A DNA stretch of 64,000 bases. It comes from a virus. Its lineage: Duplodnaviria; Heunggongvirae; Uroviricota; Caudoviricetes. Below the pieces are notes generated by a model, which saw nothing but the letters and a program-made list of their open reading frames with translations, was not told the DNA's origin and did no database searches. Below are positions 6,376-63,781 of this stretch, in pieces. The first letter of the stretch is position 1, and the number at the start of each line of letters is the position of its first letter. The DNA lies in the IMG/VR virus record IMGVR_UViG_3300012007_000011, positions 155 through 64,154 of that record, one strand, 5' to 3'. A program made the position numbers and the translations under genes.

Positions 6376-6378
6376 TAT

Positions 6379-6672: not shown

Positions 6673-6678
6673 AAAAAA

Positions 6679-6936: not shown

Positions 6937-6943
6937 GTATTTT

Positions 6944-8430: not shown

Positions 8431-8449
8431 GTATTTTTAACATAAAGTA

Positions 8450-8481: not shown

Positions 8482-8518
8482 TAAATGTAAAATAACTTTG
8501 AATAAAATTTGAATAACT

Positions 8519-8770: not shown

Positions 8771-8800
8771 ACAGAACTATTTATAGACAGTATCAAAAAA

Positions 8801-9658: not shown

Positions 9659-9687
9659 TATAATGTATTAATATTTGTTGTAAAATC

Positions 9688-24361: not shown

Positions 24362-26126
24362 CATTTTTACAAAGAGTGATTCGTTCAAGAGTGAGTACTG
24401 TTGCAGTATCATCCGTGTGGGTGAAGTAAAACCAATTGAGGGTAAGGACAAAATTGGCTACACTCTTGTCAATGGTGAGACAATTGTGGTACGTAAAGAC
24501 CAAATTAAAGAAGGTGATGTTTTGCTTTATGCAAGCAATGAAACACAACTTGACAAGGATTTCCTTGGAGCAAACAATCTTTTTGAAAGTTCTTCATACC
24601 AACTTAATAGTAATGCAAATGAGATTGAACCTTATATTTTAAAGAATAAGGAACTTAAGGCAGAAGCAGAAAATCTTGAAAAGGTAATAAAGAAACTTTT
24701 TGTTTGTTCTAAGTTCTTGATTGGCTATGATAGTGCTGTTATTGCAGCAGGAGACAATGAGGAAGAGAAGAGTGAGTTGGAAACTCGTCTTAATAATTCA
24801 CGCAAGACAATAAGTAAGTATATAGGTGGTAGTTTTAATGAGGATAGCACACTAATAGACTATGTGACAACAGCACAGAAATATTGTGCTGAGAAGAAAA
24901 CACAACTTGATATTATTAAAAAAGAAATTGATGAAACCACTGCTTATATTCGTGGACATGTAGGATTTTTTAATAAGACTGGACGTGTCCGCTCAATTCG
25001 TCTTGGTGGTGTACAATCAATGGGTTATCTTTTCACTCTTGATGAACTTGCAAAGTATAATCCCAATGTCAAAAATATTTCTCTTAACCAATATGTTGGG
25101 GAGGATTTTGATACAATTGAAGACAAACTGTTTATCAAGGCATATGTTCCCTTTGTGCCTGAACGCAGACAAGTCTCAAAGGTGGAAAAGAGAAATAAGA
25201 AAATTGAACAGTTTGACCGTATGGTGAAAGGTGAGTTTTCTTTCCATTATGATACTGCACCACTTCCAAAGTGTATCGGAAGACTAAAGCCAAGTGATGT
25301 CGTAACAATAACAAGCAAGTTACATGGAACTTCAATTTGTATTGGTAAACTCCACGTTAAGACACCAATTAAACTTCCATTCTATAAGTGGATTTGGAAT
25401 AAGTTTGTTGACTTGACAGGACTTTTCAAGGCACATCGTATTACCGATTATGTTATTGATTACGGTAATGTCACTGCTTCACGTACAGTAATCAAAAACC
25501 AATATATCAATGAAAATGTCTCTGACGGATACTATGGTGTTGATGTATGGTCTGAGTATGGTAATCTCATTTATCCTTTCCTTTCTGAAGGAATGATTAT
25601 CTATGGTGAAATCATTGGTTATCTCACTGATAGTGATAAGATGATTCAGAAGAATTATGACTATGGCTGTAATAAGGGTAAAAACAAACTCATGATATAT
25701 CGTATCACTACAAATAATGAAGATGGAACGAAGCATGAGTGGAATGTAACAGAAGTTAAGGAATGGACTGAGAAACTTGTCAAAGACCATCCAGAAATTG
25801 CTGATAGAATCCATGTTATTGACTTGTTGTATCATGGCACACTTGCAGACCTTTATCCAAATATTTCTTATATGGACCATTGGCATGAAAATGTCCTTGA
25901 GGCATTGAGAAATGAAAAGGAACGTTTCAATATGGAGAAAAATGACCCAATCTGTAAGAATAAAGTTCCATTTGAGGGGGTCGTTCTAAGAATTGATAAT
26001 GATGAGTTTGCAGAAGCATTCAAACTTAAATGTGCAAAATTCCTTTCTAAAGAAAGAGAGGAAATTGACAAGGGAGAAGTTGATATGGAAATGCTTGATA
26101 ACTACGGAAATAATGAGGGAGTATAA
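24351..26126 (+). CDS. ATP-dependent RNA ligase (Rnl2-type nucleotidyltransferase) with an N-terminal tRNA-binding OB (Myf/Trbp111-like) domain
   Basis: N-terminal IIRVGEVKPIEGKDKIGYTLVNGETIVV matches the tRNA-binding-domain consensus (vG.v....HP.ADKL.v..vd.G....iv). Ligase motifs: I SKLHGTS (KxHGxN), III YGEIIG, IV FEGVVLR, V KLKCAKF. Confidence 0.6.
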   Translation: MTNNIFTKSDSFKSEYCCSIIRVGEVKPIEGKDKIGYTLVNGETIVVRKDQIKEGDVLLYASNETQLDKDFLGANNLFESSSYQLNSNANEIEPYILKNKELKAEAENLEKVIKKLFVCSKFLIGYDSAVIAAGDNEEEKSELETRLNNSRKTISKYIGGSFNEDSTLIDYVTTAQKYCAEKKTQLDIIKKEIDETTAYIRGHVGFFNKTGRVRSIRLGGVQSMGYLFTLDELAKYNPNVKNISLNQYVGEDFDTIEDKLFIKAYVPFVPERRQVSKVEKRNKKIEQFDRMVKGEFSFHYDTAPLPKCIGRLKPSDVVTITSKLHGTSICIGKLHVKTPIKLPFYKWIWNKFVDLTGLFKAHRITDYVIDYGNVTASRTVIKNQYINENVSDGYYGVDVWSEYGNLIYPFLSEGMIIYGEIIGYLTDSDKMIQKNYDYGCNKGKNKLMIYRITTNNEDGTKHEWNVTEVKEWTEKLVKDHPEIADRIHVIDLLYHGTLADLYPNISYMDHWHENVLEALRNEKERFNMEKNDPICKNKVPFEGVVLRIDNDEFAEAFKLKCAKFLSKEREEIDKGEVDMEMLDNYGNNEGV

Positions 26127-26221
26127 AAATCCCTCATTTTTTTTTGTATATTTATACATTTTTTATACATTAAACACTATTTATTTGTATAAAAACTAAT
26201 CAATAATTTAGAATTATTCTT

Positions 26222-26329
26222 ATGAAGAAACTTTGGAAAAAATTAGATTGGAAACTACAGTATTTACTGATTGGTTGTGGCATTCTCGCAATAATTTGTG
26301 GTTTTGGATGGCTTAGTACCTTAACATAA
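26222..26329 (+). CDS. small hydrophobic peptide (35 aa)
   Basis: Short ORF MKKLWKKLDWKLQYLLIGCGILAIICGFGWLSTLT immediately upstream of a strong terminator. Confidence 0.25.
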   Translation: MKKLWKKLDWKLQYLLIGCGILAIICGFGWLSTLT

Positions 26330-26340
26330 ATTATCTTAAC

Positions 26341-26371
26341 ATGGAAGCATAGGAATGCTTCCATTTTTTTG
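26341..26371 (+). terminator. rho-independent terminator
   Basis: ATGGAAGCAT-agg-AATGCTTCCAT perfect hairpin followed by T7. Confidence 0.8.
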
Positions 26372-26469
26372 TTGTTTTAAGAAAATTTAACATAGAATAT
26401 TTTGTTATATTATTTTTTTATATTATTTTTGCAACTGTAAATGAGAATGGTTCAAAAATAAACTTTAAT

Positions 26470-26964
26470 ATGGAAAAAGATTTGACAATAGTTTCTTCTA
26501 AAACCGCAAAAGAATTAAAAGACTTCGGTTTTGATATTATTTGTCCTAACTGTTATGGTGTGGCTGTAATGCATAATGGTGAATATCTTGGGTGTGATGA
26601 AGAATATGAACTTCGTGCCGAAGGACGTGGTGATGAAATCGAATACATCGACTACGGAATGCTATATAATATGTGGTTTAAGAATAATGATAAAGAAGAC
26701 CACGATGTATGTGCGGCACCAGATATTGAAATTGTAAGGAAATGGTTTAGAGATAAATATAGTATTCATATTACCGCAATGCCATATATAACTGTTGAAG
26801 GATGTTTTTGGCTATCTGAAGTTTACACTTATAATGATGTAATGTATAATAAATTGCCACTGACAACAATGGTATGTGAGACATATGAAGAAGCCATTGA
26901 AAAAGGTATTAATAAAACAGTAAATTATCTTAAAGAGAAAGAAAAAGAAGATGAAACATTATGA
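26470..26964 (+). CDS. hypothetical protein (164 aa)
   Basis: ORF after a TTTTGCAACTG promoter at ~26435. Confidence 0.45.
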   Translation: MEKDLTIVSSKTAKELKDFGFDIICPNCYGVAVMHNGEYLGCDEEYELRAEGRGDEIEYIDYGMLYNMWFKNNDKEDHDVCAAPDIEIVRKWFRDKYSIHITAMPYITVEGCFWLSEVYTYNDVMYNKLPLTTMVCETYEEAIEKGINKTVNYLKEKEKEDETL

Positions 26965-27631
26965 TTCAATACCACGCATTCAAGATGATGGAACACTTCT
27001 TGGTTGTGATATTTGGGCATTTAACAAACTTGACGGACAAAATTTTTGTGTTAACTATTCTCCAAAAACAAAGGAGTTTAAAAATTTTGGCAGCAGAACT
27101 GTAATGGTTGATGAGACTTCTGACCAATTTGGTGATACGGTTCGTTATTTTAAAACAAGTAATATTCCAGATACACTTAAAGAAATCATTAAACAAAATA
27201 GTGGTAAAGGAAAAATTTTCAAGGGGATAGATGAAATAACTTTTTATTTTGAGTGGTATGGAGAACATTCCTTTGCAGGTAGGCATGACGAAAATGATAC
27301 GATGCATCTTGCGTTGATTGATGTCTTTTTGAAAAAGAAAGGTTATATTGAACCAAAGGATTTTTATGAAATTTTCGGTCAGAATGACAATATAGAAACA
27401 CCAGACTTGATTTATCATGGAAAATTAACAAAGGAGTTTATCAATGATATTTGGAACAACGAGGTAGGAAATGAAAACGCCCAATATCCAAGTGTGAAAG
27501 AAGGTGTTGTTTGCCGTAATAGCCATTTGTTAAAGGGACAGAGAATGCCAAAGGTCAAATTTAAGACAAAATGGTGGATTGACAAACTCCATTCAATGTA
27601 TAGCGAGGAAGAATGTAAAAAATTAGAATAA
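26951..27631 (+). CDS. minimal ATP-dependent ligase (nucleotidyltransferase domain only, 226 aa)
   Basis: Motifs I NKLDGQN (KxDGxN), III EWYGEH, IV KEGVVCRN, V KVKFKTK. Confidence 0.55.
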   Translation: MKHYDSIPRIQDDGTLLGCDIWAFNKLDGQNFCVNYSPKTKEFKNFGSRTVMVDETSDQFGDTVRYFKTSNIPDTLKEIIKQNSGKGKIFKGIDEITFYFEWYGEHSFAGRHDENDTMHLALIDVFLKKKGYIEPKDFYEIFGQNDNIETPDLIYHGKLTKEFINDIWNNEVGNENAQYPSVKEGVVCRNSHLLKGQRMPKVKFKTKWWIDKLHSMYSEEECKKLE

Positions 27632-32986: not shown

Positions 32987-33021
32987 AAGATGGTGGACTA
33001 TTAGTGTATTCCACCATCTTT
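32987..33021. terminator. bidirectional terminator hairpin overlapping the 3' end of the - strand gene
   Basis: AAAGATGGTGGA..loop..TCCACCATCTTT. Confidence 0.4.
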
Positions 33022-33996
33022 CTTGTATTTAATGTCATATAACATTTCGTTTAAATCTGCATAATATGTGTGTTTATTTTTAAAAGTAGTTGGTACATTT
33101 TGGTCAGTGAAATAAAAAACATCAATACCATGTTCTTTGCATTGTTTAAATTTTAATTCATCTCGTTCTATTAATTCGTTAAATGTAAATATTTTTGTTT
33201 CTGTTGAAATGTTTGAAGAAAATGACGTTGCTTGAAAATGTTGTATTCCTTGACATTCAATTGCACTGTTATATTCCGGTAAATAAAAATCTAATTTCAT
33301 ATTAGTTTTATTTTTTAACCATTTAAACGTCTTTTCTTCAATAAAATATATTTTATTCTCTGACAAAAAATTAGATAAATATTTTTCAAGTTTTGATTTT
33401 TGACACTTTGGACAACCATTTCCTTGTAAATGTTTGTCTGGTGTTTGCCAAAACTCACCATGTTCTGGACATATGATACATACCTTTGTTTTGTTATTAA
33501 TATAATTTACGTTAGAATAATCATACAGGTTGTTATGTATATATTTTGCTTTCTCTATAAAAGTATTATTGTTTGAGGCTAATTTTTGTTTGTATTTTAT
33601 TTTTCCACATTCAGGACATCCGCAACCTCTGATATGTGAATTTGCTTCTTGCCAAAATTCACCATGTTCTGGACATATGATACAAACCTTTTTAGTGTTA
33701 TCAATATAGATTGTCTTAGAATAATCGTATTTGTTATTATGCACCCTTTGTGCTTCTTTAATAAAATCTTCATTTGTTTTGGTTAAACGCTTTTTATGGT
33801 TTTCGTATTTACATTTTCTACATCCTTTACCACTTAAATGGCAATTTGGCGTTTGCCAAAACTCTCCGTGTTCGGGACATATGATGCACACCTTTGTTTT
33901 ATTGTTAACATATTCCACCTTTGAATAATCATACTTGTCACCATGTACTTTTCTTGCATGTTCTATAAATTCCTCTGTTGTTACTCTTTGTTGCAT
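33001..33996 (-). CDS. homing-endonuclease-like protein: 3 zinc-ribbon modules plus a Vsr/PD-(D/E)XK-like C-terminus (paralogue of 3858..5000)
   Basis: The same repeat signature (YDYSKVEY.NN.TKVCIICPEHGEFWQ..H..G.GC..C) three times, and a C-terminal LDFYLPEYNSAIECQGIQHF. Start taken at the ATG at 33996 (the track start is a GTG at 34002). Confidence 0.6.
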   Translation of the reverse strand: MQQRVTTEEFIEHARKVHGDKYDYSKVEYVNNKTKVCIICPEHGEFWQTPNCHLSGKGCRKCKYENHKKRLTKTNEDFIKEAQRVHNNKYDYSKTIYIDNTKKVCIICPEHGEFWQEANSHIRGCGCPECGKIKYKQKLASNNNTFIEKAKYIHNNLYDYSNVNYINNKTKVCIICPEHGEFWQTPDKHLQGNGCPKCQKSKLEKYLSNFLSENKIYFIEEKTFKWLKNKTNMKLDFYLPEYNSAIECQGIQHFQATSFSSNISTETKIFTFNELIERDELKFKQCKEHGIDVFYFTDQNVPTTFKNKHTYYADLNEMLYDIKYKKDGGIH

Positions 33997-34003
33997 AATC
34001 ACA

Positions 34004-37373: not shown

Positions 37374-38183
37374 ATGGAAACATTAAAGGAAAAATGTCAA
37401 GAGTTAAGAGCAAAATATGATGTCAGTATGCCAAAGAAAACATACGCAATGGCAATGATTGATGGTAAGAACTTTTCACGTCTTATTAAAAACAAATATG
37501 AAAAACCATTTGATGATAAATTCATTAATATGATGAATGAAGTGGCAATTTATGTTTGCAAGAACGTACAAGGTTGCAAATTCGCATATACACAATCAGA
37601 TGAAATTACATTTGTTCTAACTGATTTTGAAAACGAAGAAACAAGTGCATATTTTGATTATCGTTTATGCAAAATGTTATCAATTATACCGTCACTTGCA
37701 ACGGCAAAGTTTAACCAATTGGTAACATTGAATCTGCTTGATACACCTTGTTCAACAGAAGACATGAAACAAATCATCAAACATATGTCGCTTGCACAAT
37801 TTGACTGCAAAGTGTGGAATACAGATAACTTTAATGATGTGTTTGCATATTTCCTTTGGAGGCAGATAGATTGTGTGAGAAATTCAAAACAACAAGCAGC
37901 ACAAACATATCTTTCGCATAAAGAACTTATGGGAAAACATACAGATGAACAAATTAGACTGTTGTTCGAAAAGAAAGGAATTGATTGGAACGAATATTCT
38001 GATGATAAAAAATACGGACGTTTCATATATAAGGAACAAATCGAAAAGCCATTACCAAATCATGAAGAGAATACATGTCTGAGAAATGTGTGGCTTGCGC
38101 ACGATGCGTTTGAATTATACGAAAGTGGTGGAAAACAAAGACTTTTGGAACTTGGTGTCATTCCGATTAAGATTATTGAATAA
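37374..38183 (+). CDS. Thg1-like protein (tRNA-His guanylyltransferase family 3'-5' nucleotidyltransferase)
   Basis: AMAMIDGKNFSRL matches Thg1 VVRIDGKKFHEFS. YEKPFDDKF matches FAKPNDENA. KFAYTQSDEITFVL matches ILAFGESDEYSFIL. The catalytic D (in IDG) and SDE acidic residues are conserved. Confidence 0.6.
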   Translation: METLKEKCQELRAKYDVSMPKKTYAMAMIDGKNFSRLIKNKYEKPFDDKFINMMNEVAIYVCKNVQGCKFAYTQSDEITFVLTDFENEETSAYFDYRLCKMLSIIPSLATAKFNQLVTLNLLDTPCSTEDMKQIIKHMSLAQFDCKVWNTDNFNDVFAYFLWRQIDCVRNSKQQAAQTYLSHKELMGKHTDEQIRLLFEKKGIDWNEYSDDKKYGRFIYKEQIEKPLPNHEENTCLRNVWLAHDAFELYESGGKQRLLELGVIPIKIIE

Positions 38184-51665: not shown

Positions 51666-51982
51666 TGGAAGATAAAATTTATCCTTTACAGAAATCTCAG
51701 GACAGAGATTTAAAGAAAAAATTCGATAATCTTCACGTTGAGATTGTTAACAAAGTTATTGATTTCTGTAAGGAAAACAATATACAGATTGATGAGTTCA
51801 ACATATATGCCGATGGTGTCAGAGAGAGTATTCCTTTTGGTAAATGGACTTCTGTCACCGATAGCAGTTTTAGAATGGATGAATCATTAAGCAATGAGAA
51901 CGGCAAAGATGTGTATAAAATGTCTGATAAAGAATATAAATTAGCAAAAATTAATCACAAACCATTTTTATTAAGTGTGTAA
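51665..51982 (+). CDS. hypothetical protein (105 aa)
   Basis: ORF. Confidence 0.4.
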   Translation: MEDKIYPLQKSQDRDLKKKFDNLHVEIVNKVIDFCKENNIQIDEFNIYADGVRESIPFGKWTSVTDSSFRMDESLSNENGKDVYKMSDKEYKLAKINHKPFLLSV

Positions 51983-52595
51983 AATTATGTGGAATACATT
52001 TAAAACAAGCATTATGGCCGGTATTTGTATCGGTCTTGGTGGACTTATCTTTATGAAAGTCGGTGGTGTCATTGGTGCTGTGATGTTTGCATTTGGTTTA
52101 TTGTGTGTGTTACAGTTTTCAATGCCACTTTATACCGGAACAGCAGGTTTTATAAACCTCAAGAAATACAAAGATTGGTTCTATATGATTTTTGTGCTTT
52201 TCGGTAACATTATCGGCTGTTTCTTGCTCTCGCTCATATTGCCGAATGAAGTCAATGCAGATAGTATAATTCAATCAAGGATTGATACCGGATTTCTGCA
52301 AGCAACATTGAATGGTATCGGTTGTGGAATCATAATGACACTAATTGTACAAGGTGGAAGAGATAAATTAGAATGGTTCAAAGGAAGCGTAATGGGCGGT
52401 AGGGAAAAAAACCTATTACTTACATTGTTTGGAATACCGTTGTTTATCCTGTGTGGTTTCTATCACAGTATTGCTGATGCATTCTATATGTTCAATGCTA
52501 ATTACAACTTATTGTTAGAATATCTTCCAACATATAGTTTTATTGTTCTTGGTAACTTTATTGGATGTAATATACCACGTTTTTTACTGAAATAA
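51975..52595 (+). CDS. formate/nitrite-transporter (FNT)-family-like membrane channel, compact (206 aa)
   Basis: IMAGICIGLGG matches the FNT N-terminal AGAYIGLG motif; LYTGTAG matches LFTGN; ILCGFYHSIADAFYM matches the FNT signature CGFEHSIANMF; multiple TM segments. Confidence 0.45.
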   Translation: MCKIMWNTFKTSIMAGICIGLGGLIFMKVGGVIGAVMFAFGLLCVLQFSMPLYTGTAGFINLKKYKDWFYMIFVLFGNIIGCFLLSLILPNEVNADSIIQSRIDTGFLQATLNGIGCGIIMTLIVQGGRDKLEWFKGSVMGGREKNLLLTLFGIPLFILCGFYHSIADAFYMFNANYNLLLEYLPTYSFIVLGNFIGCNIPRFLLK

Positions 52596-52688: not shown

Positions 52689-53276
52689 ATGATTTTAGGG
52701 TCACATAATTCGTGGTCTTATTTAAAACCACAAAAATGGTGGATGAGGTTATTATCATTTACTGCTAAATGCCAGTGCAAAACAATAGAGGAACAATATG
52801 AAAAATATGGGGTAAGGTGTTTTGACTTACGTTTAAGATACATTAATGGCGAAGCATATGTTGTTCATAATGATTTTGTATATGCCAAATTTTGGGGCGA
52901 AATAAGTCAGACATTACAATGGCTTAATGATAAAAGAGACGTTGCAATACGTGTAATACATGATGTAAGAACAAAGAACAAATATAAACCATTAAGTGTC
53001 AAGTTATTTAAGGATGATTGCAAACGTCTGGAAGAAGAATATCCAAACATCTTATTTTGGAATGGTAAGAATCTTTATAATCTTGAATATGATTATAATT
53101 TTCAATATTTTCCCAAATGTATTGAAAAATATTCTTCTGCATGCCCACCAAGAATACTTGACGATTGGCTACCATTTTTATATGCAACAATTAAAAACAA
53201 ATGGATTTATAGAAAACATAAATTGGACAATACATATGCATCAATACTTTTAATTGATTTTGTTAACATAAAATAA
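52689..53276 (+). CDS. PI-PLC X-domain-like phosphodiesterase
   Basis: ILGSHNSWSY...YGVRCFDLRLRY matches the PI-PLC X-box (GTHNSY...GVRYLDLRV). Start at the first ATG after the hydrophobic leader ORF. Confidence 0.4.
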   Translation: MILGSHNSWSYLKPQKWWMRLLSFTAKCQCKTIEEQYEKYGVRCFDLRLRYINGEAYVVHNDFVYAKFWGEISQTLQWLNDKRDVAIRVIHDVRTKNKYKPLSVKLFKDDCKRLEEEYPNILFWNGKNLYNLEYDYNFQYFPKCIEKYSSACPPRILDDWLPFLYATIKNKWIYRKHKLDNTYASILLIDFVNIK

Positions 53277-53277
53277 T

Positions 53278-53321
53278 GGGATAACGTTTTTTGTTATCCC
53301 ATTATTATAGTTTTTTTTTTT
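53278..53321. terminator. bidirectional terminator
   Basis: GGGATAAC-GTTTTTT-GTTATCCC hairpin then T11 (53311..53321), between the + and - strand gene blocks. Confidence 0.65.
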
Positions 53322-54827: not shown

Positions 54828-55610
54828 TCACCTTCTCTTTTTGTTTACATTATATTTTCTTAAACCATTCAATGTATTCTCTATTTCTTCGTCATCCATA
54901 AAATCAAAATAGGTTATCTTTTTTTTCAATGATTTCTTGAATACAAGGAAATATGAATGGAACGACCTTGCGTGTTGTTGTTCTTTAACTTTTCCGCTAA
55001 TCAGTCTATTCTTTGCCAACAGTATAAACTCATCCAAACTGTCAAACCCAAGGCTTTCAGCAATCATTCTGCTATAATATGGAGTATTCAGCATTTTACT
55101 ACCAGTGATTGTTGCTTGAGTCTTGAAACACATTATTCCGTCTTCCTTCAGTACTCTGTATGCCTCCTCAATCCAATGCTTATATGATTCTAAAAGTTGC
55201 GCCACAGGATAGTATGCTGCAAATCTTCTTGATATGAGATTGTTTTTTACCTTATTACCGTTTTCATCATAATCAGGTGTTTTCATACTTGGACCGCAAC
55301 TAATAACAAACGGAAGGTCAATGCAAATACTACTAATTGAATTGTCTTCCAATGGAAGAGGTCCAAGCGGTTCAATCTTTTCAACACCATCAACTTGCGG
55401 ACAAACATCAAACTTATAGTTTGGTTGAGGTATCTCTATTTCAAGTGTTTCCCCATTGTCCTTTGTAATGTTGAACTTTCCATAAAAGTTTCCAATCGAA
55501 TAAGTAGGGTCACAATCAAACGGTTTCCCATCATTATGCAGTTGCATAATATTATATAAGATTTCGTGCTGATTGTAACCAATACTCTTTACTACTCCAT
55601 CATATGCCAT
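54828..55610 (-). CDS. hypothetical protein (260 aa)
   Basis: ORF in the - strand operon. FDCDPTYS loosely resembles an MTase motif IV but no motif I was found. Confidence 0.45.
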   Translation of the reverse strand: MAYDGVVKSIGYNQHEILYNIMQLHNDGKPFDCDPTYSIGNFYGKFNITKDNGETLEIEIPQPNYKFDVCPQVDGVEKIEPLGPLPLEDNSISSICIDLPFVISCGPSMKTPDYDENGNKVKNNLISRRFAAYYPVAQLLESYKHWIEEAYRVLKEDGIMCFKTQATITGSKMLNTPYYSRMIAESLGFDSLDEFILLAKNRLISGKVKEQQHARSFHSYFLVFKKSLKKKITYFDFMDDEEIENTLNGLRKYNVNKKRR

Positions 55611-55613: not shown

Positions 55614-55883
55614 TTACACTTCCATATCTCCGTTATTACGATGCTTGCTTACATTCTTCCTAAGATTCTTGTAATTTCCACTCATAATAAGTTCATTCTT
55701 GCCAATCTTACATGTTGCATAGACATTGTTATTTCCATTCAAGAAATCAAGATTTCTTTTATTAACGATAATGTTATATCTGTTACAGAAATCAAGGAAA
55801 CAATCGTTGTCCAAGAAACCAATCGGCTGTCTATTTACATCAGACCACTCATAAAAAAGTACTTTTACATCATTACATTCCAT
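55614..55883 (-). CDS. hypothetical protein (89 aa)
   Basis: ORF. Confidence 0.4.
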   Translation of the reverse strand: MECNDVKVLFYEWSDVNRQPIGFLDNDCFLDFCNRYNIIVNKRNLDFLNGNNNVYATCKIGKNELIMSGNYKNLRKNVSKHRNNGDMEV

Positions 55884-55941: not shown

Positions 55942-56652
55942 TTAACGAAATAATTTTGGGGTTTTTATTGGTTTTCCACCATTTTTAATTGAATCATACC
56001 ACTGACCATTGGTATCCAAACCAAGTATCTCTGTGCCGATTAACTTATCAGCAACTATCTTCACTATATCTTCACCACATCTTCCTTCATAATCCTTTTT
56101 CAAATAGTTTTCTCTTTCTTCTTGGTATTTCTTGCTCTGTATGAAACCACAACAAGACAACTCCGGACAAAATCCCCTATAAACACAATCGGGAACCATC
56201 TTGTCAGCCATTACCGGGTCAATCTTCCTAATTGCTTCCCTTACTTGTTTCCATGCTTCCCTTGTTTCCGTGCTTGCACAACCACACAAACGCTTTCTTG
56301 ATATGTTTATCAGTGACTGAGCGTTGCAACTCATCATCATATCGTTAAGGCTTCCTTGCGGCATTTCATCACGTGGAACAGGGTTATCACGTCTGTCTTG
56401 TCTTTGGGAATGTACAAACTTCTCACAACCTATGTAGTGTCGTACAAGATGTGTAGTAACCCAAGTCTTGATATTATTCCATTTGAAATCATATTCAACA
56501 AGTCTGATTGGAGAATGTTCTGCCAATAATATAGAAGCCCACCATTTCTTAGTAGGCTCTTTATTTATTTCTTCTTTGCCAATTGTTTCCCTTGCAGCGT
56601 TCAATGCCCTTTTCCATGTTGTAGCCATTGTACATTTTACTATCTCACTCAT
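55942..56652 (-). CDS. thyX: flavin-dependent thymidylate synthase ThyX-like
   Basis: LVRHYIGCEKFVHSQRQDR matches the ThyX signature RHR-x7-8-SQR; 236 aa is the right size. Confidence 0.5.
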   Translation of the reverse strand: MSEIVKCTMATTWKRALNAARETIGKEEINKEPTKKWWASILLAEHSPIRLVEYDFKWNNIKTWVTTHLVRHYIGCEKFVHSQRQDRRDNPVPRDEMPQGSLNDMMMSCNAQSLINISRKRLCGCASTETREAWKQVREAIRKIDPVMADKMVPDCVYRGFCPELSCCGFIQSKKYQEERENYLKKDYEGRCGEDIVKIVADKLIGTEILGLDTNGQWYDSIKNGGKPIKTPKLFR

Positions 56653-57676
56653 TGTCTGCTTCCATTAAATCCGTTATTATTACTGTTTTGTTTTCTCTGA
56701 AATATCTGAATCCATTTAGGAAATCCTCAATATTCATAATTTTCTTACTGGCAATCTGTATTCTCTTTATATAAACACATTTTCCACAATCCGCCAAATT
56801 CAATCTCACAAACGTTTTGCCATCACTTTCACAATACAAAGTCTGCACGTTCATTGGTGTTTCTTCTTTATTAACAACTTCAACATCATAAATCTTGGCT
56901 TCAAATTTCTTCTCATTATTGTCTTCGTCAATTACATAGATAATGCAAGGTAAACCAACATTGTCAACAGAATTGACCAACCTTTGCATTCTTTCACAAT
57001 CAAAATGAGACCAATGACAACGGAAATAATCTGAATTTATCTTATGTGCGTCAATAACATATTCATGTTCATGATTCCAACTTGGTTGTACAATCAAACA
57101 ATCCTTCCAATCTTCATGTTGAAGGACATCTTCAATGACATGTCCCGTAAAGTCCACACAAGCATTCGATAACTTCTTGTATAAGGTGGTATATTTCTCT
57201 CCTGCTGCGATTTTAACTCTTGTGTTGGCAATTATATCACCGTGGTCAATTTTGTCGTTTAGAACGAATGCTGTAAGTCCCGTCTCCTTATAACCAAGTT
57301 TGATTGCCCAATTGATTGGTGCTGCACCACGAAGAAATGGTAAAAGAGAAGCATGAACATTAAAAGCACACTTCTTCGCAAGTTTGATTATTTCCTTTGG
57401 CAGTTTCTTAAATGAAATAACACAGAAGATATCGGCATCCATTCTTTTCAACCAATCAATAAAGAAAGCATCTTCTTCAAACTTTTCTCCCTTTATCATA
57501 TAATAAGGAACTCTTAGTTCCTCTGCAACTTGTTTTATTGTCTTCTTGTGAAACCTGACTTTATCATTAGCACAAGTAACAAGACCAACAATATTGCTGC
57601 CATTATTTACCAATGTTTCAAACGTGTCAATTGCAAAATCACCATTTGCAAAAAATACTACTCTATCCTTTGTCAT
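56645..57676 (-). CDS. formyltransferase, methionyl-tRNA formyltransferase (Fmt)-like with a C-terminal domain
   Basis: N-terminal RVVFFANGDFAIDTFETLV...IVGLVTCAND matches the Fmt IVFMGTPDFA...VVT.PD motif; NVHASLLPFLRGAAPINWAI is the formyltransferase catalytic motif; the 343 aa include an Fmt-like C-terminal domain. Overlaps thyX by 8 nt. Confidence 0.6.
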   Translation of the reverse strand: MTKDRVVFFANGDFAIDTFETLVNNGSNIVGLVTCANDKVRFHKKTIKQVAEELRVPYYMIKGEKFEEDAFFIDWLKRMDADIFCVISFKKLPKEIIKLAKKCAFNVHASLLPFLRGAAPINWAIKLGYKETGLTAFVLNDKIDHGDIIANTRVKIAAGEKYTTLYKKLSNACVDFTGHVIEDVLQHEDWKDCLIVQPSWNHEHEYVIDAHKINSDYFRCHWSHFDCERMQRLVNSVDNVGLPCIIYVIDEDNNEKKFEAKIYDVEVVNKEETPMNVQTLYCESDGKTFVRLNLADCGKCVYIKRIQIASKKIMNIEDFLNGFRYFRENKTVIITDLMEADNE

Positions 57677-57947
57677 TATAGTTCCCTTTTATTTTCTTAT
57701 TATCAACGATTTTATTTCCATACCATACTGTTTCTGTTCCAATATCACCTTCAGAATTACCCAAATCAATGTATGACCGAAAATCATATATTTGGCCTTT
57801 TGTAGTTATATCTTTCTTCATCCTGTATGTCAAAAATAACTTCCTTGCAATCCTTTTTTGTTTCTCCCTCACCGCCACCACCATAACATACGTTAGGCAA
57901 TGATATGCCTGTTGGAATGCCATTCGCATTAGTATAGACCAGTGCAT
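57663..57947 (-). CDS. hypothetical protein (94 aa)
   Basis: ORF in the operon. Confidence 0.4.
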   Translation of the reverse strand: MHWSILMRMAFQQAYHCLTYVMVVAVREKQKRIARKLFLTYRMKKDITTKGQIYDFRSYIDLGNSEGDIGTETVWYGNKIVDNKKIKGNYNDKG

Positions 57948-57982
57948 CCATGTTATAATCTAATAATATGGTAATCAATTCT

Positions 57983-58264
57983 TTAACTGTTAAAATCTTT
58001 CTCATATCGTTCTATGTATTTTCGTTTTATTTTTTCTATGTATTTCAATACATCCTCTTTATTTTCAAATTCGCCATTTTCCAAAAAAAGTTCAATAAAC
58101 TCTTCCGTGTTGCATATTGGACAAGGAATGTCACCACCAATAAAATAACCCTCACTGTCCCAAGAATCCATATCATACAGATAGCCATCCAAACATACAG
58201 CATCAGGATACGATGCACCGAAAAGTGGAAATTCTATACCACATCCTTTTTTATTCTTCTCCAT
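57983..58264 (-). CDS. hypothetical protein (93 aa, CPIC zinc-binding-like)
   Basis: ORF. Confidence 0.4.
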   Translation of the reverse strand: MEKNKKGCGIEFPLFGASYPDAVCLDGYLYDMDSWDSEGYFIGGDIPCPICNTEEFIELFLENGEFENKEDVLKYIEKIKRKYIERYEKDFNS

Positions 58265-58730
58265 TTTTCAATTGTTTATATAATTCCTCAATATATTCTT
58301 CCCTTTGTCTCTTCCATTCATCATAATTGTCAATGACTTCCCCGTAATAATCAATAGGGGGTGTTATTCGTTCTGGTGATATAAATGGAAACACTACTCT
58401 TAAAGGAAGCATATAAAGCATTTGCTTGGTCACGTTCTTCCTCACATCAGGTGCCCATTTCATCACATCTTCCCTGATATAATCAAAACAGTATTTCTTC
58501 TTTTGTCCAAGTGTTCTTTTCCATTCTTCAAAAAAATCATTCAGTCCGATTTTATTGCAATACATACCAGGTGCTATTTCATATTTATTTTCGTTTATTT
58601 TCTTCGGATAAGGAAATTCAATTTCCATTTCCTTTAACTCTTTCGTGAAATCAAATGGCAAACTTGGTGCTCCACGTCTTATAGGCTCAAATAGTTTTTT
58701 CTTCTTCTCCATAATAATCTTTAATTTCAA
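58251..58730 (-). CDS. hypothetical protein (159 aa)
   Basis: ORF; start uncertain because it overlaps 58687..58908. Confidence 0.4.
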   Translation of the reverse strand: MKLKIIMEKKKKLFEPIRRGAPSLPFDFTKELKEMEIEFPYPKKINENKYEIAPGMYCNKIGLNDFFEEWKRTLGQKKKYCFDYIREDVMKWAPDVRKNVTKQMLYMLPLRVVFPFISPERITPPIDYYGEVIDNYDEWKRQREEYIEELYKQLKNGEE

Positions 58731-58908
58731 ATGTTACGTCATCGCCATACATTACAAGAGTGTTTCCAATATTTGACATATCGCTCACCTTTGGTTCATC
58801 AATCATATGTTCAAGACAATAGCCAACAATTGTTATAAATGCAGTTTCCAATGATATGTTTTCTATTATTTCATCAAATTCTTTATCTAATATCCTAAGT
58901 GTTACCAT
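58687..58908 (-). CDS. hypothetical protein (73 aa)
   Basis: ORF. Confidence 0.3.
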   Translation of the reverse strand: MVTLRILDKEFDEIIENISLETAFITIVGYCLEHMIDEPKVSDMSNIGNTLVMYGDDVTFEIKDYYGEEEKTI

Positions 58909-59064
58909 ATTAAAGGTATTTTTGTTTCTGTTTTACAATCATGATGTTGCATTTTCATCCTATCCAATTCATATTGCACGTGTTGTTTGTACCAACAATT
59001 GTTACAATCGTTGTTGTTGAAGCAATACCTATCACATCCGTAGTGTGCTAAAAGACGTTCTATT

Positions 59065-59328
59065 TCACTCATTTTCTAATGTTTTGTAGAACTCGTCAAA
59101 TGCTATACTAAGACTATTCCCTCCATCATTCCAAAATGGTATAGGTTCGTTTTCCTTATGTGACGGAATACCATACTTTTCACATTCCTCTATCCATTTC
59201 TCCTTTATTGGGGCAATATTTACAGGAATGGCATCACCTCTTCCGTTGTCAGTTACCCAACCTAACTGCTGTTTAGAACCATCGTCTAAAATTCTAAATA
59301 ATCTGTCGTTTTCTACTTTATATTCCAT
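59065..59328 (-). CDS. hypothetical protein (87 aa)
   Basis: ORF. Confidence 0.4.
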   Translation of the reverse strand: MEYKVENDRLFRILDDGSKQQLGWVTDNGRGDAIPVNIAPIKEKWIEECEKYGIPSHKENEPIPFWNDGGNSLSIAFDEFYKTLENE

Positions 59329-59331
59329 ATT

Positions 59332-59802
59332 TCATTCATTTATAAGATTATCTCTTACTGAAGGTTTAACATTACATTCTCCATATTTTTCTTCTATTAA
59401 AGTCTTCTGTTTTTTTAATACTGCTATTAAGGATGCGTTGTCATCACCTTCATCCTCATGGTCAACATACAGACATTCATATTCATATTGTCCAAAGTCC
59501 TCAATGAAATTATATCTTATCATTTCTCTGATATGGTCTTCAAAATCAAGATACCCTATTCTCATTTCACCTGCATTTCCAACTACTTTAACGTATACCT
59601 CATTATATGGTATGGATGTATAGAAAAGAAATGAACCATTTTCATTGGTTACTGGCTTTATTTCAGTATAAGGGACAAAAATCTCCGTTAAAAGCACATC
59701 ATCAAATGTCATTCCTAATGATTTTGGTTCTTTAAATATGTATCTTTCAAACGGATAACATTCATTGAAACACTTTAAAAAATCTTCATCATAACTATTC
59801 AT
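59332..59802 (-). CDS. hypothetical protein (156 aa)
   Basis: ORF. Confidence 0.45.
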   Translation of the reverse strand: MNSYDEDFLKCFNECYPFERYIFKEPKSLGMTFDDVLLTEIFVPYTEIKPVTNENGSFLFYTSIPYNEVYVKVVGNAGEMRIGYLDFEDHIREMIRYNFIEDFGQYEYECLYVDHEDEGDDNASLIAVLKKQKTLIEEKYGECNVKPSVRDNLINE

Positions 59803-59805
59803 AAC

Positions 59806-60204
59806 TTATTCCTTTCTATTTCCTAATTTTAATATAAACACTTCCTTATCCTCTGGTGCTCCCCATTCTGTTTTTCCCTTTCCAATTGTAATACCTTTTA
59901 ATTCAAACAACATTGTTCGTTTGGTATATCCATAACGGAATCGGATGTGCGTATAAGCCCTTGTTCCATACTTATTTATCAAATATTTGTAACTATGACA
60001 TAATGGGTTTTCAATATTCGTTTCTGTAACACAATCGAACATATGTCCCTCATAGCATTTTATCCCTAATGGGTAAGAATATAACAATCTATTGCACCAA
60101 TATGGCTTAATCTCACGATATTCTTCTTTCTTGATACCACTTTCAATCATTTCGTACCACTCTTTTTTCAGTGGTAAATCAAGTACTATATTTTGTTTTA
60201 TCAT
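59806..60204 (-). CDS. hypothetical protein (132 aa)
   Basis: ORF. Confidence 0.45.
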   Translation of the reverse strand: MIKQNIVLDLPLKKEWYEMIESGIKKEEYREIKPYWCNRLLYSYPLGIKCYEGHMFDCVTETNIENPLCHSYKYLINKYGTRAYTHIRFRYGYTKRTMLFELKGITIGKGKTEWGAPEDKEVFILKLGNRKE

Positions 60205-60232
60205 AACATTTAATCGTATTGGTTTGACTTAT

Positions 60233-60451
60233 TCAATGTGCTAAATAATCGAATTTCCAACAAAAATCCATGTTATACATTGGTGTATCAAGACTTTCAT
60301 CTGGATAGAAATCATTCTTCCTGATATCAATACCAACCAATTCAACATCATATTCTTCTGAAAAATCTCTTATTAATTTTGAGATTTTTGTTTTGAGTTT
60401 GATTTCGTCATCAACTCTTTTCTTCGCCTTTTTATCTTTACTCGTCATCAT
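60233..60451 (-). CDS. hypothetical protein (72 aa)
   Basis: ORF. Confidence 0.35.
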   Translation of the reverse strand: MMTSKDKKAKKRVDDEIKLKTKISKLIRDFSEEYDVELVGIDIRKNDFYPDESLDTPMYNMDFCWKFDYLAH

Positions 60452-60723
60452 TTATAATAATATTTTTGTTTAGTCATAAAAACCTTATCGTAATCATCAA
60501 ATGCTAATTGTATGTTATCCTTATATTCTGAAATTTGCGTATCACCATCCTCAATGTAAAATTCAAGCCATTCATACACTTTTTCCTTAAGTTTTTTATT
60601 ACCCTTTGTTTGTATTTTGATAATATTAATAAGGTGAGATGAAACACCACCAACTTCAATACCATTTCCTGGATAACAGATATAATATGCTAATGCTTGT
60701 GCTAATTTTTCAATTCTGCTCAT
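60448..60723 (-). CDS. hypothetical protein (91 aa)
   Basis: ORF. Confidence 0.4.
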   Translation of the reverse strand: MSRIEKLAQALAYYICYPGNGIEVGGVSSHLINIIKIQTKGNKKLKEKVYEWLEFYIEDGDTQISEYKDNIQLAFDDYDKVFMTKQKYYYK

Positions 60724-61441
60724 TTTCTTTTTCAGTATTTATTCCTTTCAAAAAATCAATAATCTCGTCATGATACGGGTTATCTTCACTTGGAAGCACG
60801 GCCTTTATCCTGTCTATAACCTCCCTGTCATGATTATAAGTCTTCCACAAGATTTCTGCGCTTACTCTATTCTTGTCATAATTGCCACTGAACAATTTCT
60901 GCTCAATTTCCTTTTCTTTATCCCTAATCTTCTTGAGTTGTTCCTCAGTTACTCTATCCTTACACATAAGTCCAAGATAGAAAGCATTAGTCCATTCATT
61001 TTCAAGGGAATCAGCACATGTACCTTCAAATTTGAACAGTCTTTGATAGTCTTGTCTTCGTCCTCTGAAATAGTTTGAAAGTTCGTTATTAACAATTTGA
61101 TTCTTCCTTTTCTTTATGGTTTGAAGCACTTCATATCCTTCCTTCAATGACGGACATTCAACAATCTCATTAAGAATGGTCTTTATTCTTGCACAAACCT
61201 CTGCACGTCCCTGACTTATCCAACCCTGATATGTTGTTGTCCATAGGTTTTTCCGTTCGTCTGAGCGCACTTTATCCACCTCCTTGAGATATTGTTCAAC
61301 AGCATCATAAAGACGCTTCACAACACGCCTAATTCGGTCTTGAAACTCTGCTTCAGATATTTCAAGTGTGTCTTTATCATTCAGTAATTGTGAGAGAAGT
61401 TCACTCTTCTCTTGTTTTGATAAACTACTTACATTAATCAT
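60710..61441 (-). CDS. hypothetical protein (243 aa)
   Basis: ORF. Confidence 0.5.
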   Translation of the reverse strand: MINVSSLSKQEKSELLSQLLNDKDTLEISEAEFQDRIRRVVKRLYDAVEQYLKEVDKVRSDERKNLWTTTYQGWISQGRAEVCARIKTILNEIVECPSLKEGYEVLQTIKKRKNQIVNNELSNYFRGRRQDYQRLFKFEGTCADSLENEWTNAFYLGLMCKDRVTEEQLKKIRDKEKEIEQKLFSGNYDKNRVSAEILWKTYNHDREVIDRIKAVLPSEDNPYHDEIIDFLKGINTEKENEQN

Positions 61442-61839
61442 AATTCAATCTCTTTTTTAATTCCGCATAAACGCATAAGATGTTGCAGTTCATAAAGATA
61501 TGTTATTGGCATTTCTCTAATGGTAATACAACCGATACTTGCATCAATGTAATTGTAGAGGTGAGTATAATTGTACTCTTTTAGCATAAAAATGATTTGA
61601 TATTCATGTTCAGAATCATAGTAAATACAAGCATCATTTCTCTTTTCCCATTCATTTTTCTCAAGAATTTCTGAGGTAATGGGGATAGGCTCAATATTAT
61701 CATAAGTTTCCCAAACAAGTTCATCACTCCCACCGCATGAAACTAATAAACAACATTCATTAGGGGTTATACTTTGGATTAATGCAAATCTATTGCCATA
61801 TTTCACCCAATCCCCAACCATAACTTCTTTTGCTTCCAT
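61438..61839 (-). CDS. hypothetical protein (133 aa)
   Basis: ORF. Confidence 0.45.
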   Translation of the reverse strand: MEAKEVMVGDWVKYGNRFALIQSITPNECCLLVSCGGSDELVWETYDNIEPIPITSEILEKNEWEKRNDACIYYDSEHEYQIIFMLKEYNYTHLYNYIDASIGCITIREMPITYLYELQHLMRLCGIKKEIEL

Positions 61840-61842
61840 GAC

Positions 61843-62454
61843 CTATTCTATATTTTTTAAAACTTCTTTATTCTTTGTATACACAATTAACCAACCAATA
61901 TCATCAAATATACAGCATACAGACCAAAGGAAAAGTGATACTTTCAGACTTGGTAATGCAATGAGTGCAGAAACGTATCCAATAATACAAACAATTCCGC
62001 TTACAATGCTTACATTGTTATCATATATTTCCCTCTCTTTTTCAACCCACAATTTTGCTTTAAATGCCATTATACATTTTCCAACAAATGTTGATATGAT
62101 GGTTGTATATACCAGTGAAGCAATGGCAAATATCCACACATTCCAATTTATAAAACAAAGATAAAATCCCAATAAACAACCGCATAGTGATTCAGCAAAA
62201 GCAAGATAGAAAAAATACCTTATTGCTTTTTTTCTCACATTTTTCTGCCAAAACATTCCTATTAACAGTCCTGCAATTGAAGCAGCCAAACTTTCAAATG
62301 CAATCCATTGTGCTGGTAAGTTTGAAATGATTTCCTTTACCAATGTGGGATGGGCATAAGTGATTAAAAGACCGCTTACTACAAGACTCATTAAAAGCCA
62401 AGATTGGTTTTTATCTGGGTGTATGTTAACATATCCCAAAAGTTTCTTAATCAT
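61843..62454 (-). CDS. integral membrane protein (203 aa, about 5-6 TM segments)
   Basis: Hydrophobic segments throughout. Confidence 0.45.
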   Translation of the reverse strand: MIKKLLGYVNIHPDKNQSWLLMSLVVSGLLITYAHPTLVKEIISNLPAQWIAFESLAASIAGLLIGMFWQKNVRKKAIRYFFYLAFAESLCGCLLGFYLCFINWNVWIFAIASLVYTTIISTFVGKCIMAFKAKLWVEKEREIYDNNVSIVSGIVCIIGYVSALIALPSLKVSLFLWSVCCIFDDIGWLIVYTKNKEVLKNIE

Positions 62455-62780
62455 AATTTCTTCAATTCTGTAATTAGAGCATTCGCTTGTGAAACTGCCA
62501 TTGAAGCAATTTGTTTTTCATTAAATGTCATTTCTGTATCAGAAGTAATCAAAGCGTTCATTGCAAACATAGCAGCCAAATTGCGTATTGCATCCCAATT
62601 CGTAGTATCTTTTACAGTTTCGTTAGTTTCTGTTTCTTCATCAATGTCATCTTCACTACAAAGTCCATATTCAGTATTACCACATTTAGGACATCTGTAC
62701 ATATATTGTGGTGGATAAGAAGTAAAAACTTGGCTTCTGTCTGCAATCATTTTTGCTCCACAGTTACTGCATTTCTTCAT
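62451..62780 (-). CDS. zinc-ribbon protein (109 aa)
   Basis: CSNCG...CPKCG pair. Confidence 0.45.
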   Translation of the reverse strand: MKKCSNCGAKMIADRSQVFTSYPPQYMYRCPKCGNTEYGLCSEDDIDEETETNETVKDTTNWDAIRNLAAMFAMNALITSDTEMTFNEKQIASMAVSQANALITELKKL

Positions 62781-63781
62781 TTTTTATTATTGTTTTTATT
62801 TGTTATTTCCTCAATATCAAATTCCTCACAAAATCTTGCATTCATACTCTCATAATCAAAATGGTAATCAATTTCACTTAATTCCTTCCCCTTATAAAGT
62901 TTATATGCAATGGAGTGATATTGTAATGGTACACCAATCAATTTGAATTTCCCATCAGTACAGAAATAATCTTTCATAAAGAAAGTTTTCCTTACGCTTC
63001 TGCTTTCTTTAAACACAAGATTATAGCCCCTTAAATGAAAAAATTCAACATGTACATCAAAACCGATTTCTTTTGCTATTTTTTCAATATCTCTTCTTAA
63101 TGCAAAACATGTAAGTTTATCATTATATAAAAGAAATTCAGTCTTAAATATGATTTCATCATTTGATAATGATACACATTTATCTGTAACATATGGGAAA
63201 TACTCGATAACCTTTTTATAAATTTGTGTTATAAAATATTTCTCTGCCGTAATGTGTCTCTTTGGATTGAGTTTTCCAAAAATAACCTCACGTGTATACT
63301 TGCTCGTCTTCACATAATCCAAATCAGTGAATTTACCAATAAAATCTTCATATGTATCAGCACCAAACACAATATCTTTATCAATATTTCTTAATGTTTG
63401 AAAATTAGCCTTTTTCAAGTCAATTGATATGAAAAATTCGCCAATGTTATCGTTGTTATAAATGTTATTAGAAGTTATATTTGGTCTATCCTTAATTGTA
63501 AAAACATTCATATCCATTGTGTTAAATTTCTGGAATGCCTCACTATCCATAACAGTAGTAATAATTTTATCCCTGACATTGTAGTAATCTTCCAAAAACT
63601 TATTGCAATCCCCATCATATTTTTTATTAATCATATCAAGAAGTTGGTTGTATTTTTCTAATGAACCATAGTCATCTTGATACAGATTTAAATGATAGAA
63701 AAAATATTCCTCATTAATCAGTGGAATTGGAAGTTTGTAATCACTGATAAACCTTTTTGCTAATTCTCTGTTGTATAACAT
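62777..63781 (-). CDS. hypothetical protein (334 aa), first gene of the - strand block
   Basis: Long ORF. Confidence 0.5.
   Translation of the reverse strand: MLYNRELAKRFISDYKLPIPLINEEYFFYHLNLYQDDYGSLEKYNQLLDMINKKYDGDCNKFLEDYYNVRDKIITTVMDSEAFQKFNTMDMNVFTIKDRPNITSNNIYNNDNIGEFFISIDLKKANFQTLRNIDKDIVFGADTYEDFIGKFTDLDYVKTSKYTREVIFGKLNPKRHITAEKYFITQIYKKVIEYFPYVTDKCVSLSNDEIIFKTEFLLYNDKLTCFALRRDIEKIAKEIGFDVHVEFFHLRGYNLVFKESRSVRKTFFMKDYFCTDGKFKLIGVPLQYHSIAYKLYKGKELSEIDYHFDYESMNARFCEEFDIEEITNKNNNKK

Follow-up and report, generated by a model that had tools for sequence, protein, structure and literature searches.

Bacteria count formylation of initiator tRNA among their core functions. The closest described relative of the protein analysed here is the bacterial methionyl-tRNA formyltransferase Fmt (TIGR00460; structures 1FMT/2FMT and 4IQF). 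Loop 1 of Fmt, with Arg42, is crucial to the recognition of initiator tRNA, Arg42 making contact with G70 (PMC8843374, PMC13234167), and deletion of residues 38-47 from the E. coli enzyme lowers its activity about 10^4-fold (PMC8843374). A second relative is the N-domain of ArnA, the UDP-Ara4N formyltransferase (2BLN, 1Z7E). The 'Thy1' proteins of the Crassvirales (cr116_1 gp_24126, bajarodcaudo virus ThyX) are treated as the ancestral crAss thymidylate synthase by Yutin et al. (PMC7886860). The locus compared here with these systems lies on a 64,000-nt stretch of DNA, positions 155 to 64,154 of the IMG/VR virus record IMGVR_UViG_3300012007_000011, the whole of which is referred to as the window. 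It contains a gene for an Fmt-like formyltransferase that overlaps a gene for a ThyX-like protein of the crAss-type 'Thy1' family. The comparison suggests that a large clade of gut jumbo phages keeps an Fmt scaffold that is predicted to be catalytically intact but no longer has the element to which Fmt owes its specificity for tRNA.

Both genes lie on the minus strand and start with ATG. The formyltransferase gene (56645-57676) encodes 343 amino acids and the ThyX-like gene (55942-56652) encodes 236, including a fused C-terminal tail. Direct reading of the sequence gives an overlap of 8 nt at 56645-56652 (ATGAGTGA, minus strand). The formyltransferase frame closes with GAC AAT GAG TGA, its TGA at 56647-56645, and the ThyX-like frame opens with ATG AGT GAG, its ATG at 56652-56650; the same geometry is found in two related loci, L003 and L005. 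The two open reading frames (ORFs) each have hundreds to thousands of metagenomic homologues (n=7468 for the formyltransferase), some of them 97-98% identical, and are therefore real genes and not chance frames. The overlap implies co-expression: the two genes are co-transcribed here and are probably translationally coupled.

The formyltransferase consists of a Rossmann-type catalytic domain, a linker and a β-barrel C-terminal domain. Pfam recognizes both domains, Formyl_trans_N (PF00551) at 1e-23 and 84.5 bits and Formyl_trans_C (PF02911) at 22.8 bits against a cut-off of 21.1. An AlphaFold2 model built from 118 members of the phage family is confident across both domains (predicted local distance difference test score, pLDDT, 92.9). 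Foldseek aligns this model with Fmt over its full length, the Formyl_trans_C β-barrel being joined via the linker, and ranks Fmt (4iqf, 3.6e-24) ahead of the ArnA N-domain (2e-21) and the hydrolase domain of FDH (1e-20). As all three match strongly, the fold gives the architecture and not the substrate. In sequence searches of the PDB an alignment running through the C-domain was obtained only with the Fmt structures 3q0i and 3r8x. Several family members are called methionyl-tRNA formyltransferase by the automatic annotation of JGI.

The catalytic core, placed by alignment at 57245-57361 (minus strand), comprises N106, H108, the SLLP segment (residues 110-113) and D144. N106, H108 and D144 are invariant in 118/118 members and align with N108, H110 and D146 of E. 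coli Fmt, and on these grounds the enzyme is predicted to be active. The gene product should thus be a catalytically competent folate-dependent N-formyltransferase of the 10-formyl-tetrahydrofolate (10-formyl-THF) type. With bacterial Fmt it shares PF00551 and PF02911, the Asn/His/Asp triad, SLLP..RG, a linker Ala-x-Lys and a C-terminal Gly-Lys. The last two features (the linker residues being A204 and K206 in E. coli) are conserved in the phage family, and at the same positions ArnA has F, R and D-G. A first-pass annotation of this DNA had described overlapping minus-strand frames with an 8-nt overlap and a full-length, two-domain Fmt-like protein with an SLLP..RG motif, set in a phage-like genome with RNA-repair genes. 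Each of these points was recovered: the coordinates were reproduced exactly, Fmt is the best match by profile, sequence and fold, the motif is present as HASLLPFLRG (residues 108-117), and two RNA ligases, a Thg1-like protein, an HD+kinase protein and an Rv2179c-like exoribonuclease were seen in the window.

The phage protein departs from Fmt in its loop 1. Alignment places a shortened loop at residues 34-47 (TCANDKVRFHKKTI; 57536-57577, minus strand), from which the G41-R42-G43 segment of Fmt is missing; in bacterial Fmt the loop is one of 16 residues (34-49). The reference for this comparison was formed by 75 full-length Fmt proteins from metagenome loci together with E. coli Fmt and E. coli ArnA. 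The bacterial set is unannotated and is taken to be Fmt from its loop signature and from contig sizes of up to 2.25 Mb. Loop 1 has 16-17 residues in 75/75 of the bacterial proteins and 11-12 in 103/118 of the phage proteins. ArnA has a similar short loop in place of that of Fmt (13 residues against 12 in the phage protein), in addition to sharing the two-subdomain fold and the triad. The phage loop is basic, with a net charge of +3, and that of ArnA has a net charge of -1. A further difference from bacterial Fmt is that the phage C-domain contains insertions (about 155 residues compared with 129) and is acidic in the window protein.

The overall similarity of the protein to Fmt is limited. Over the N- and C-domains, respectively, the window protein shares 34% and 24% identity with Fmt and 28% and 14% with ArnA, while Fmt and ArnA share 31% and 21%, and bacterial Fmt proteins among themselves 55% and 38%. 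The identity between window protein and Fmt thus resembles that between Fmt and ArnA and is far below that within bacterial Fmt, so that, by sequence distance, the phage clade is a third lineage about as distant from Fmt as ArnA is. Against a hidden Markov model (HMM) of bacterial Fmt the window protein scores 218.6 bits and ArnA 179.8 (42 and 29 for the C-terminal halves). The clade appears to be large and distinct, and derived from or sister to Fmt rather than ArnA; here it was found only on phage-like metagenomic contigs.

The ThyX-like protein is a more divergent member of its superfamily. It passes the Pfam threshold for Thy1 (PF02511) with 42.2 bits against a cut-off of 24.8, its best stretch corresponding to the C-terminal quarter of the model. 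Its AlphaFold2 model is of moderate quality (pLDDT 77). When this was compared with the PDB by Foldseek the top 50 matches were all ThyX, with E-values of about 3e-5, template modelling (TM) scores of 0.42-0.51 (about 0.47) and about 12% identity in the structural alignments. Sequence searches of the PDB, with the protein alone and as a family profile, found no ThyX, and the relationship is therefore visible only to Pfam and the fold search. With canonical ThyX (PF02511/TIGR02170; T. maritima 1O26) the protein has the fold in common; it passes the Pfam threshold but not that of TIGR02170, it has RH(Y/H) instead of RHR, and its family has four extra invariant cysteines. The motif in the window protein reads R71-H72-Y73...S82-x-R84-Q, and R94 and R121 are invariant in the family.

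The ThyX-like protein is 57-67% identical to proteins of the Crassvirales, with whose 'Thy1' it shares a core of about 190 amino acids and the same pattern of conserved Arg, His and Cys residues. The crAss gene differs in its setting, since it stands in a replication module beside a dUTPase, DNA polymerase or thioredoxin-like gene and is not accompanied by a formyltransferase. The window copy also differs in its length. The ThyX-like ORF runs on into a conserved tail of about 45 amino acids (55942-56079, minus strand; peptide VADKLIGTE.LGLDTNGQWYD..KNGGKPIKTPKLFR), as is also the case in P0121, while in L003 this tail is a separate, overlapping ORF of 45 amino acids (9581-9718). DNA alignment with L003 shows that an 11-nt indel fuses the tail peptide, which explains why the window protein has 236 amino acids and not the usual 190 or so.

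The window is AT-rich (G+C about 31%), and the closest homologues of its formyltransferase are found on contigs of 180-390 kb from gut samples. A Megablast comparison of 14 kb of the window with annotated phages gave no match and no near-identical relative. The 'Jug' gut jumbo phages have Bacteroides/Phocaeicola as predicted hosts, and neither gene is mentioned in their description (PMC12880540). The window stems from a large, AT-rich phage of the gut, probably a jumbo phage of the 'Jug' type that infects Bacteroidota; we infer this assignment because the size of the homologue contigs and the G+C content agree with those of 'Jug' phages.

The surroundings of the formyltransferase were compared in 14 independent loci that contain members of its family (32-91% identity), each gene being scanned by HMM. 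A scan of IMG/VR supplied 6 loci, and a scan of metagenomes yielded mostly bacterial fmt, reused as the reference set described above. In L005, L007 and L226, genes for a CCA-adding enzyme, YqeY and RlaP are found a short way upstream. What stays constant around the formyltransferase is a tRNA/RNA-repair neighbourhood together with two uncharacterised partners, which are described below. In the window, the auxiliary genes encode an HD+kinase protein, an Rv2179c-like exoribonuclease, two RNA ligases and a Thg1-like protein, and further several DNA methylases, MetK followed by a S-adenosylmethionine (SAM) lyase, two radical-SAM proteins, an SPFH protein and SSB. The initiator-tRNA anticodon-arm pattern was searched for in IMG/VR and, among the matches listed, none lay on contigs of the family. 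As a separate observation, the RNA-repair set of the plus strand is spread over 4966-9658, 24351-27631 and 37374-38183, its members being an HD+AAA_33 kinase-like protein, the Rv2179c-like 3'-5' exoribonuclease, a metallophosphoesterase, the two RNA ligases and the Thg1-like 3'-5' polymerase.

The reading favoured here, which is given a probability of roughly one half, is that the formyltransferase acts on aminoacyl-tRNA by a non-canonical recognition and that the ThyX-like protein independently makes deoxythymidine monophosphate (dTMP); we infer both substrates and the link to tRNA. What the analysis shows is the structure of the genes, their domains, the catalytic residues, the position of the clade, the missing loop and the synteny counts. 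The formyltransferase would formylate the α-amino group of an aminoacyl-tRNA, the likeliest substrate being Met-tRNA. Recognition would be non-canonical, and possibly relaxed, with the 16-residue Arg42 loop of Fmt replaced by the shorter basic loop. The enzyme would then form part of a phage tRNA maintenance kit made up of the CCA-adding enzyme, YqeY, RlaP, the Thg1-like protein, RNA ligases and end-healing enzymes. The ThyX-like protein, as a highly divergent representative of the ThyX fold, would use flavin adenine dinucleotide (FAD) and 5,10-methylene-THF to methylate deoxyuridine monophosphate (dUMP), and would supply dTMP for a genome of 69% A+T.

Several observations on both proteins weigh against this reading. 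The NCBIfam model for fmt, TIGR00460, gives the formyltransferase 129.3 bits, missing the cut-off of 201.5 by a wide margin. The positions of G41, R42 and G43 are filled in 72, 74 and 69 of the 75 bacterial Fmt proteins and in 0-1 of the 118 phage proteins, which have gaps there in 116-117 cases. The linker and C-domain together have a net charge of -8 in the window protein (family mean -1.5; bacterial Fmt mean +2.7), an acidic character that makes a poor match to a tRNA-binding surface; the C-domain charge gives no clean separation of the groups. The clade being about as far from Fmt as ArnA is, a change of substrate is also plausible. With regard to genomic context, the most conserved partner of the formyltransferase is a 334-aa protein and not a translation factor, no def gene was found near the phage formyltransferase, and ARAGORN detected no tRNA gene in the 64-kb window or in 12 related loci. 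For the bacterial reference proteins, validation succeeded only in part: a def or rsmB neighbour was detectable in no more than 8 of the 49 loci with enough flanking sequence.

For the ThyX-like protein, the NCBIfam model TIGR02170 gives 30.8 bits, below its cut-off of 87.9. The canonical ThyX motif is RHRxxSxxxxSxR(Y). Relative to this motif, the third Arg is changed to Tyr/His, Tyr91 is lost and one residue is inserted before SxR, while Arg-His and Ser-x-Arg are kept. We take the protein to have conserved equivalents of T. maritima H53, R78, H79, S88, R90, R147 and R174, an assignment for which the hhalign score is non-significant. R94 and R121 would presumably correspond to R147 and R174, the arginines of the dUMP phosphate, with which they pair both in the Pfam register and in the same non-significant alignment. 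Four cysteines (C123, C156, C162 and C168) are invariant and two (C76 and C125) nearly so, mostly within a C-terminal segment of low confidence. This cluster may be a metal-binding site; canonical ThyX is not known to have such a site. Because the motif positions depart from canonical ThyX, and because of the conserved cysteine cluster, the thymidylate-synthase label of the crAss-type 'Thy1' is to be read as a prediction only.

The alternative that survives best takes the conserved partners of the formyltransferase as its starting point, and is regarded as tentative and rather unlikely. In this scheme a three-gene modification module, made up of a 334-aa putative palm nucleotidyltransferase, the formyltransferase and an amino-methyltransferase-like protein, would formylate a non-canonical amine and would not serve initiation. 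Its target could be a nucleotide- or nucleic-acid-linked amine, or an aminoacyl group that is passed to DNA or RNA. The loss of the initiator-tRNA loop and the acidic C-domain would suit such a changed substrate. There is a precedent in Mom, an aminoacyl-tRNA-dependent DNA hypermodification system that uses Gly-tRNA to modify DNA (PMC13219725), and DNA methylases and an RE_MjaI-like protein are encoded further downstream in related loci.

The gene for the 334-aa protein, recognized by synteny as the consistent upstream partner, is located at 62777-63781 (minus strand). It is found upstream of the formyltransferase and on the same strand in 13/13 assessable loci, and in 8 of these it abuts or overlaps it. 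The family is large, with 1,626 clusters at 50% identity. D121, N126, R164 and D208 are invariant and belong to the motifs SxDxxKANF, SKYxRxxxFG and (S/N)DE(I/V). Two invariant Asp and an Arg/Lys fall in polymerase-like motifs, and weak alignments were obtained with Pol I and Thg1: by hhalign the motifs pair with motifs A and C of Pol I (E = 0.023 for motif C) and with the catalytic SDE of the Thg1-like protein of the window (E = 0.018), all of them below significance. One of 76 members matches a Y-family polymerase model of Pfam at 4.9e-5, which was not counted as significant. Searches of Pfam, PHROGs, NCBIfam and PDB sequences, with the protein alone and with two profiles, gave nothing significant. 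It is possible, as a hypothesis drawn from these motifs, that the 334-aa protein is a palm-type nucleotidyltransferase.

The methyltransferase-like gene (54828-55610, minus strand; 260 amino acids) is the conserved downstream neighbour, being present downstream of the formyltransferase in 11/14 loci. It matches phrog_24333 'DNA methyltransferase' at 1.9e-38 and PF01555 partially, at 28.1 bits, with only the N-terminal half of the N6_N4_Mtase model matched. Close to its N-terminus the sequence DPTYSIGN may represent a motif-I-like element, and a DLPF motif is found at about residue 98.

Against a modification module stand the remote-homology probabilities for the 334-aa protein, which are 0.2-2.6% with none significant, and the consideration that gene order in related jumbo phages may reflect shared ancestry alone. 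Distant members of the 334-aa family moreover occur without a formyltransferase, and in the window itself the two are some 5 kb apart, with other genes in between. This separation is due to a block of small ORFs (57784-62454, minus strand), an insertion relative to the more distant relatives, for which no informative family matches were found. The window shares this block with L003 and L225; it is lacking in L007, L012-L016, L099 and L226, where the genes abut. In L007, L226 and L228 the 334-aa family is encoded at 7033-8004, 6934-8022 and 7001-7945, respectively. Homologues are also encoded by the cultured Salicola phage SCTP-2 (gp208, 'hypothetical') and by a separate 642-kb megaphage, and distant members of the family adjoin genes for RlaP, YpsA or a CCA-adding enzyme.

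A bolder form of this idea, which is speculative and unlikely, is that the formyltransferase, the 334-aa protein and the methyltransferase-like protein constitute an undescribed jumbo-phage system for modification of tRNA or of nucleic acid, the latter with an aminoacyl-tRNA-like donor. The Fmt scaffold would have been repurposed by the swap of loop 1, and the 334-aa protein would represent a new minimal family of palm-type nucleotidyltransferases.

It is very unlikely that the protein is an ordinary Fmt, that is a host-equivalent copy carried by the phage which formylates host Met-tRNAfMet in the canonical manner and sustains initiation during infection. Fmt is the best match in the NCBIfam, PDB sequence and fold searches, several members carry that name in the JGI annotation, and the triad, the linker Lys and the C-terminal GK are conserved. 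The equivalog cut-off is missed, however, 117-118 of the 118 members have neither the canonical recognition loop nor Arg42, and the identity is only 34%/24% compared with 55%/38% among bacterial Fmt. The gene further differs from that of bacterial Fmt in being phage-encoded and in lacking a def or rsmB neighbour. With 129 bits against 201.5, and with the insertion loop and Arg42 absent, the protein is not an Fmt equivalog.

A coupled folate module is equally doubtful. Here the formyltransferase would act as a 10-formyl-THF hydrolase similar to PurU or to the FDH N-domain, freeing THF for thymidylate synthesis, or the two proteins would jointly make a modified pyrimidine. This explanation draws on the 8-nt overlap and the co-expression it implies, on the close structural match to the FDH hydrolase domain (1e-20), and on the high demand for dTMP of a genome with 69% A+T. 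It also draws on a formate/nitrite-transporter-like ORF of 206 amino acids (51975-52595, plus strand; PF01226 at 4e-14, FocA 24 bits against a cut-off of 290) located 3 kb from the formyltransferase. A conserved association with this ORF was rejected, as it is absent at the corresponding place in L003, the closest relative. A full Fmt-type C-domain with its conserved Lys would be left unexplained by a simple hydrolase, and no other folate-pathway enzyme was found among the window ORFs scanned.

The gene pair itself is patchy in its distribution. The ThyX-like gene lies downstream of the formyltransferase in 4/14 loci, directly after it in L003 (91%), L005 (61%) and L098 (46%), and 1.2 kb downstream with two genes between in L225 (69%). 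The remaining 10/14 loci do not have it; in L099 (52%) an unrelated 187-aa gene takes its place. Conversely, it occurs without the formyltransferase in L001 and L002, which are crAss replication modules, and in L100, a jumbo contig on which it lies next to PolB. The adjacency seen in the window is accordingly a lineage-specific local rearrangement and not a conserved or obligate functional pair. TnpB/IS605-type elements flank the pair in L005 (2361-3560 and 10220-11368) and L098 (1901-4318 and 9825-11060), which is consistent with the rearrangements seen at the locus. In L100 the ThyX-like gene (8595-9134) is followed by a dTDP-sugar-isomerase-like (cupin) gene and then by an intein-containing family-B DNA polymerase.

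These results alter the first-pass annotation in part. Its proposal of a functional Fmt-ThyX pair is weakened by the patchy pairing and by the occurrence of the ThyX-like gene alone in crAss-like and other jumbo phages. Its ThyX-like gene, for which it had suggested a check against PF02511, passes the Pfam threshold and has the ThyX fold, and misses the cut-off of TIGR02170. Taken as a whole, the Fmt-type and ThyX-fold identities stand; the formyltransferase is not an Fmt equivalog, the case for a functional pair is weak, and neither a tRNA gene nor another folate enzyme was found in the scans of the window.

A sugar-nucleotide N-formyltransferase of the ArnA type, making a formamido sugar for glycosylation of phage DNA or protein or for a change to the host envelope, is highly improbable: the ArnA N-domain and, more weakly, sugar N-formyltransferases are significant matches in sequence and fold and loop 1 is similar in length to that of ArnA, but in both domains the window protein is less close to ArnA than to Fmt, and it was not grouped outright with ArnA-like enzymes in the profile comparison that had been proposed for it, the NCBIfam ArnA model is not reached (101 bits against a cut-off of 777), the 343-aa protein has no extra domain corresponding to the fused dehydrogenase domain of ArnA, ArnA has other residues at those linker and C-terminal motif positions that are common to the phage family and Fmt, and no aminotransferase, dehydratase or glycosyltransferase was found either among the scanned ORFs of the window or in the related loci.

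Both protein superfamilies, and the crAss Thy1 annotation, are already known. What appears to be new is a large clade of Fmt architecture, here on phage-like contigs only, that by alignment lacks the initiator-tRNA recognition loop. The constant association of this formyltransferase clade with the large, uncharacterised 334-aa family is also new. In the searchable literature no description of a phage-encoded Fmt-type enzyme was found, nor any specific work on the chemistry of crAss Thy1. The viral structure library BFVD holds no phage Fmt-type protein, and only two giant-virus proteins match. Of these the 'methionyl-tRNA formyltransferase' of Yasminevirus (A0A5K0UBN6, E = 1.8e-15) is the sole other viral protein with the two-domain Fmt-type arrangement; it belongs to a virus of eukaryotes, is 16% identical and has only the fold in common with the phage clade. 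A retained scaffold without its specificity element may point to an unexpected way in which phages control translation initiation or shield it, and this would bear on defences and toxins that target the initiator tRNA. Alternatively, the Fmt fold may have been recruited to a new substrate.

The two genes form part of a minus-strand block that extends from beyond 63.8 kb down to 53329. Between the ThyX-like and methyltransferase-like genes lies a conserved ORF of 89 amino acids (55614-55883, minus strand), with homologues of 52-86% identity at the same position in L003, L005 and L099 and with no family match. The block faces a plus-strand block, and between the convergent ORF ends at 53276 (plus) and 53329 (minus) there is a bidirectional, terminator-like hairpin (53272-53306, both strands) with a stem of 14-15 bp followed by T runs on each strand. 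A scan for sigma-70 promoters gave fewer sites than were found in shuffled controls.

Two further features of the window lie outside this block. A SAM synthetase gene (11895-13079, plus strand), which contains all three MetK Pfam domains, is closely followed by an ORF of the S-adenosylmethionine lyase family (13457-14119, plus strand; PF23780, 1.3e-11). The making and the breakdown of SAM are thus encoded by neighbouring genes, and the window further contains at least 4 DNA methylases and the two radical-SAM proteins. In addition, two paralogous treble-clef zinc-finger ORFs are present at 3858-5000 (plus strand) and 33001-34002 (minus strand), both with DUF4379 and the first also with DUF723. 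One of the two has the opposite orientation to the plus-strand block in which it lies, and they may be mobile, endonuclease-like genes.

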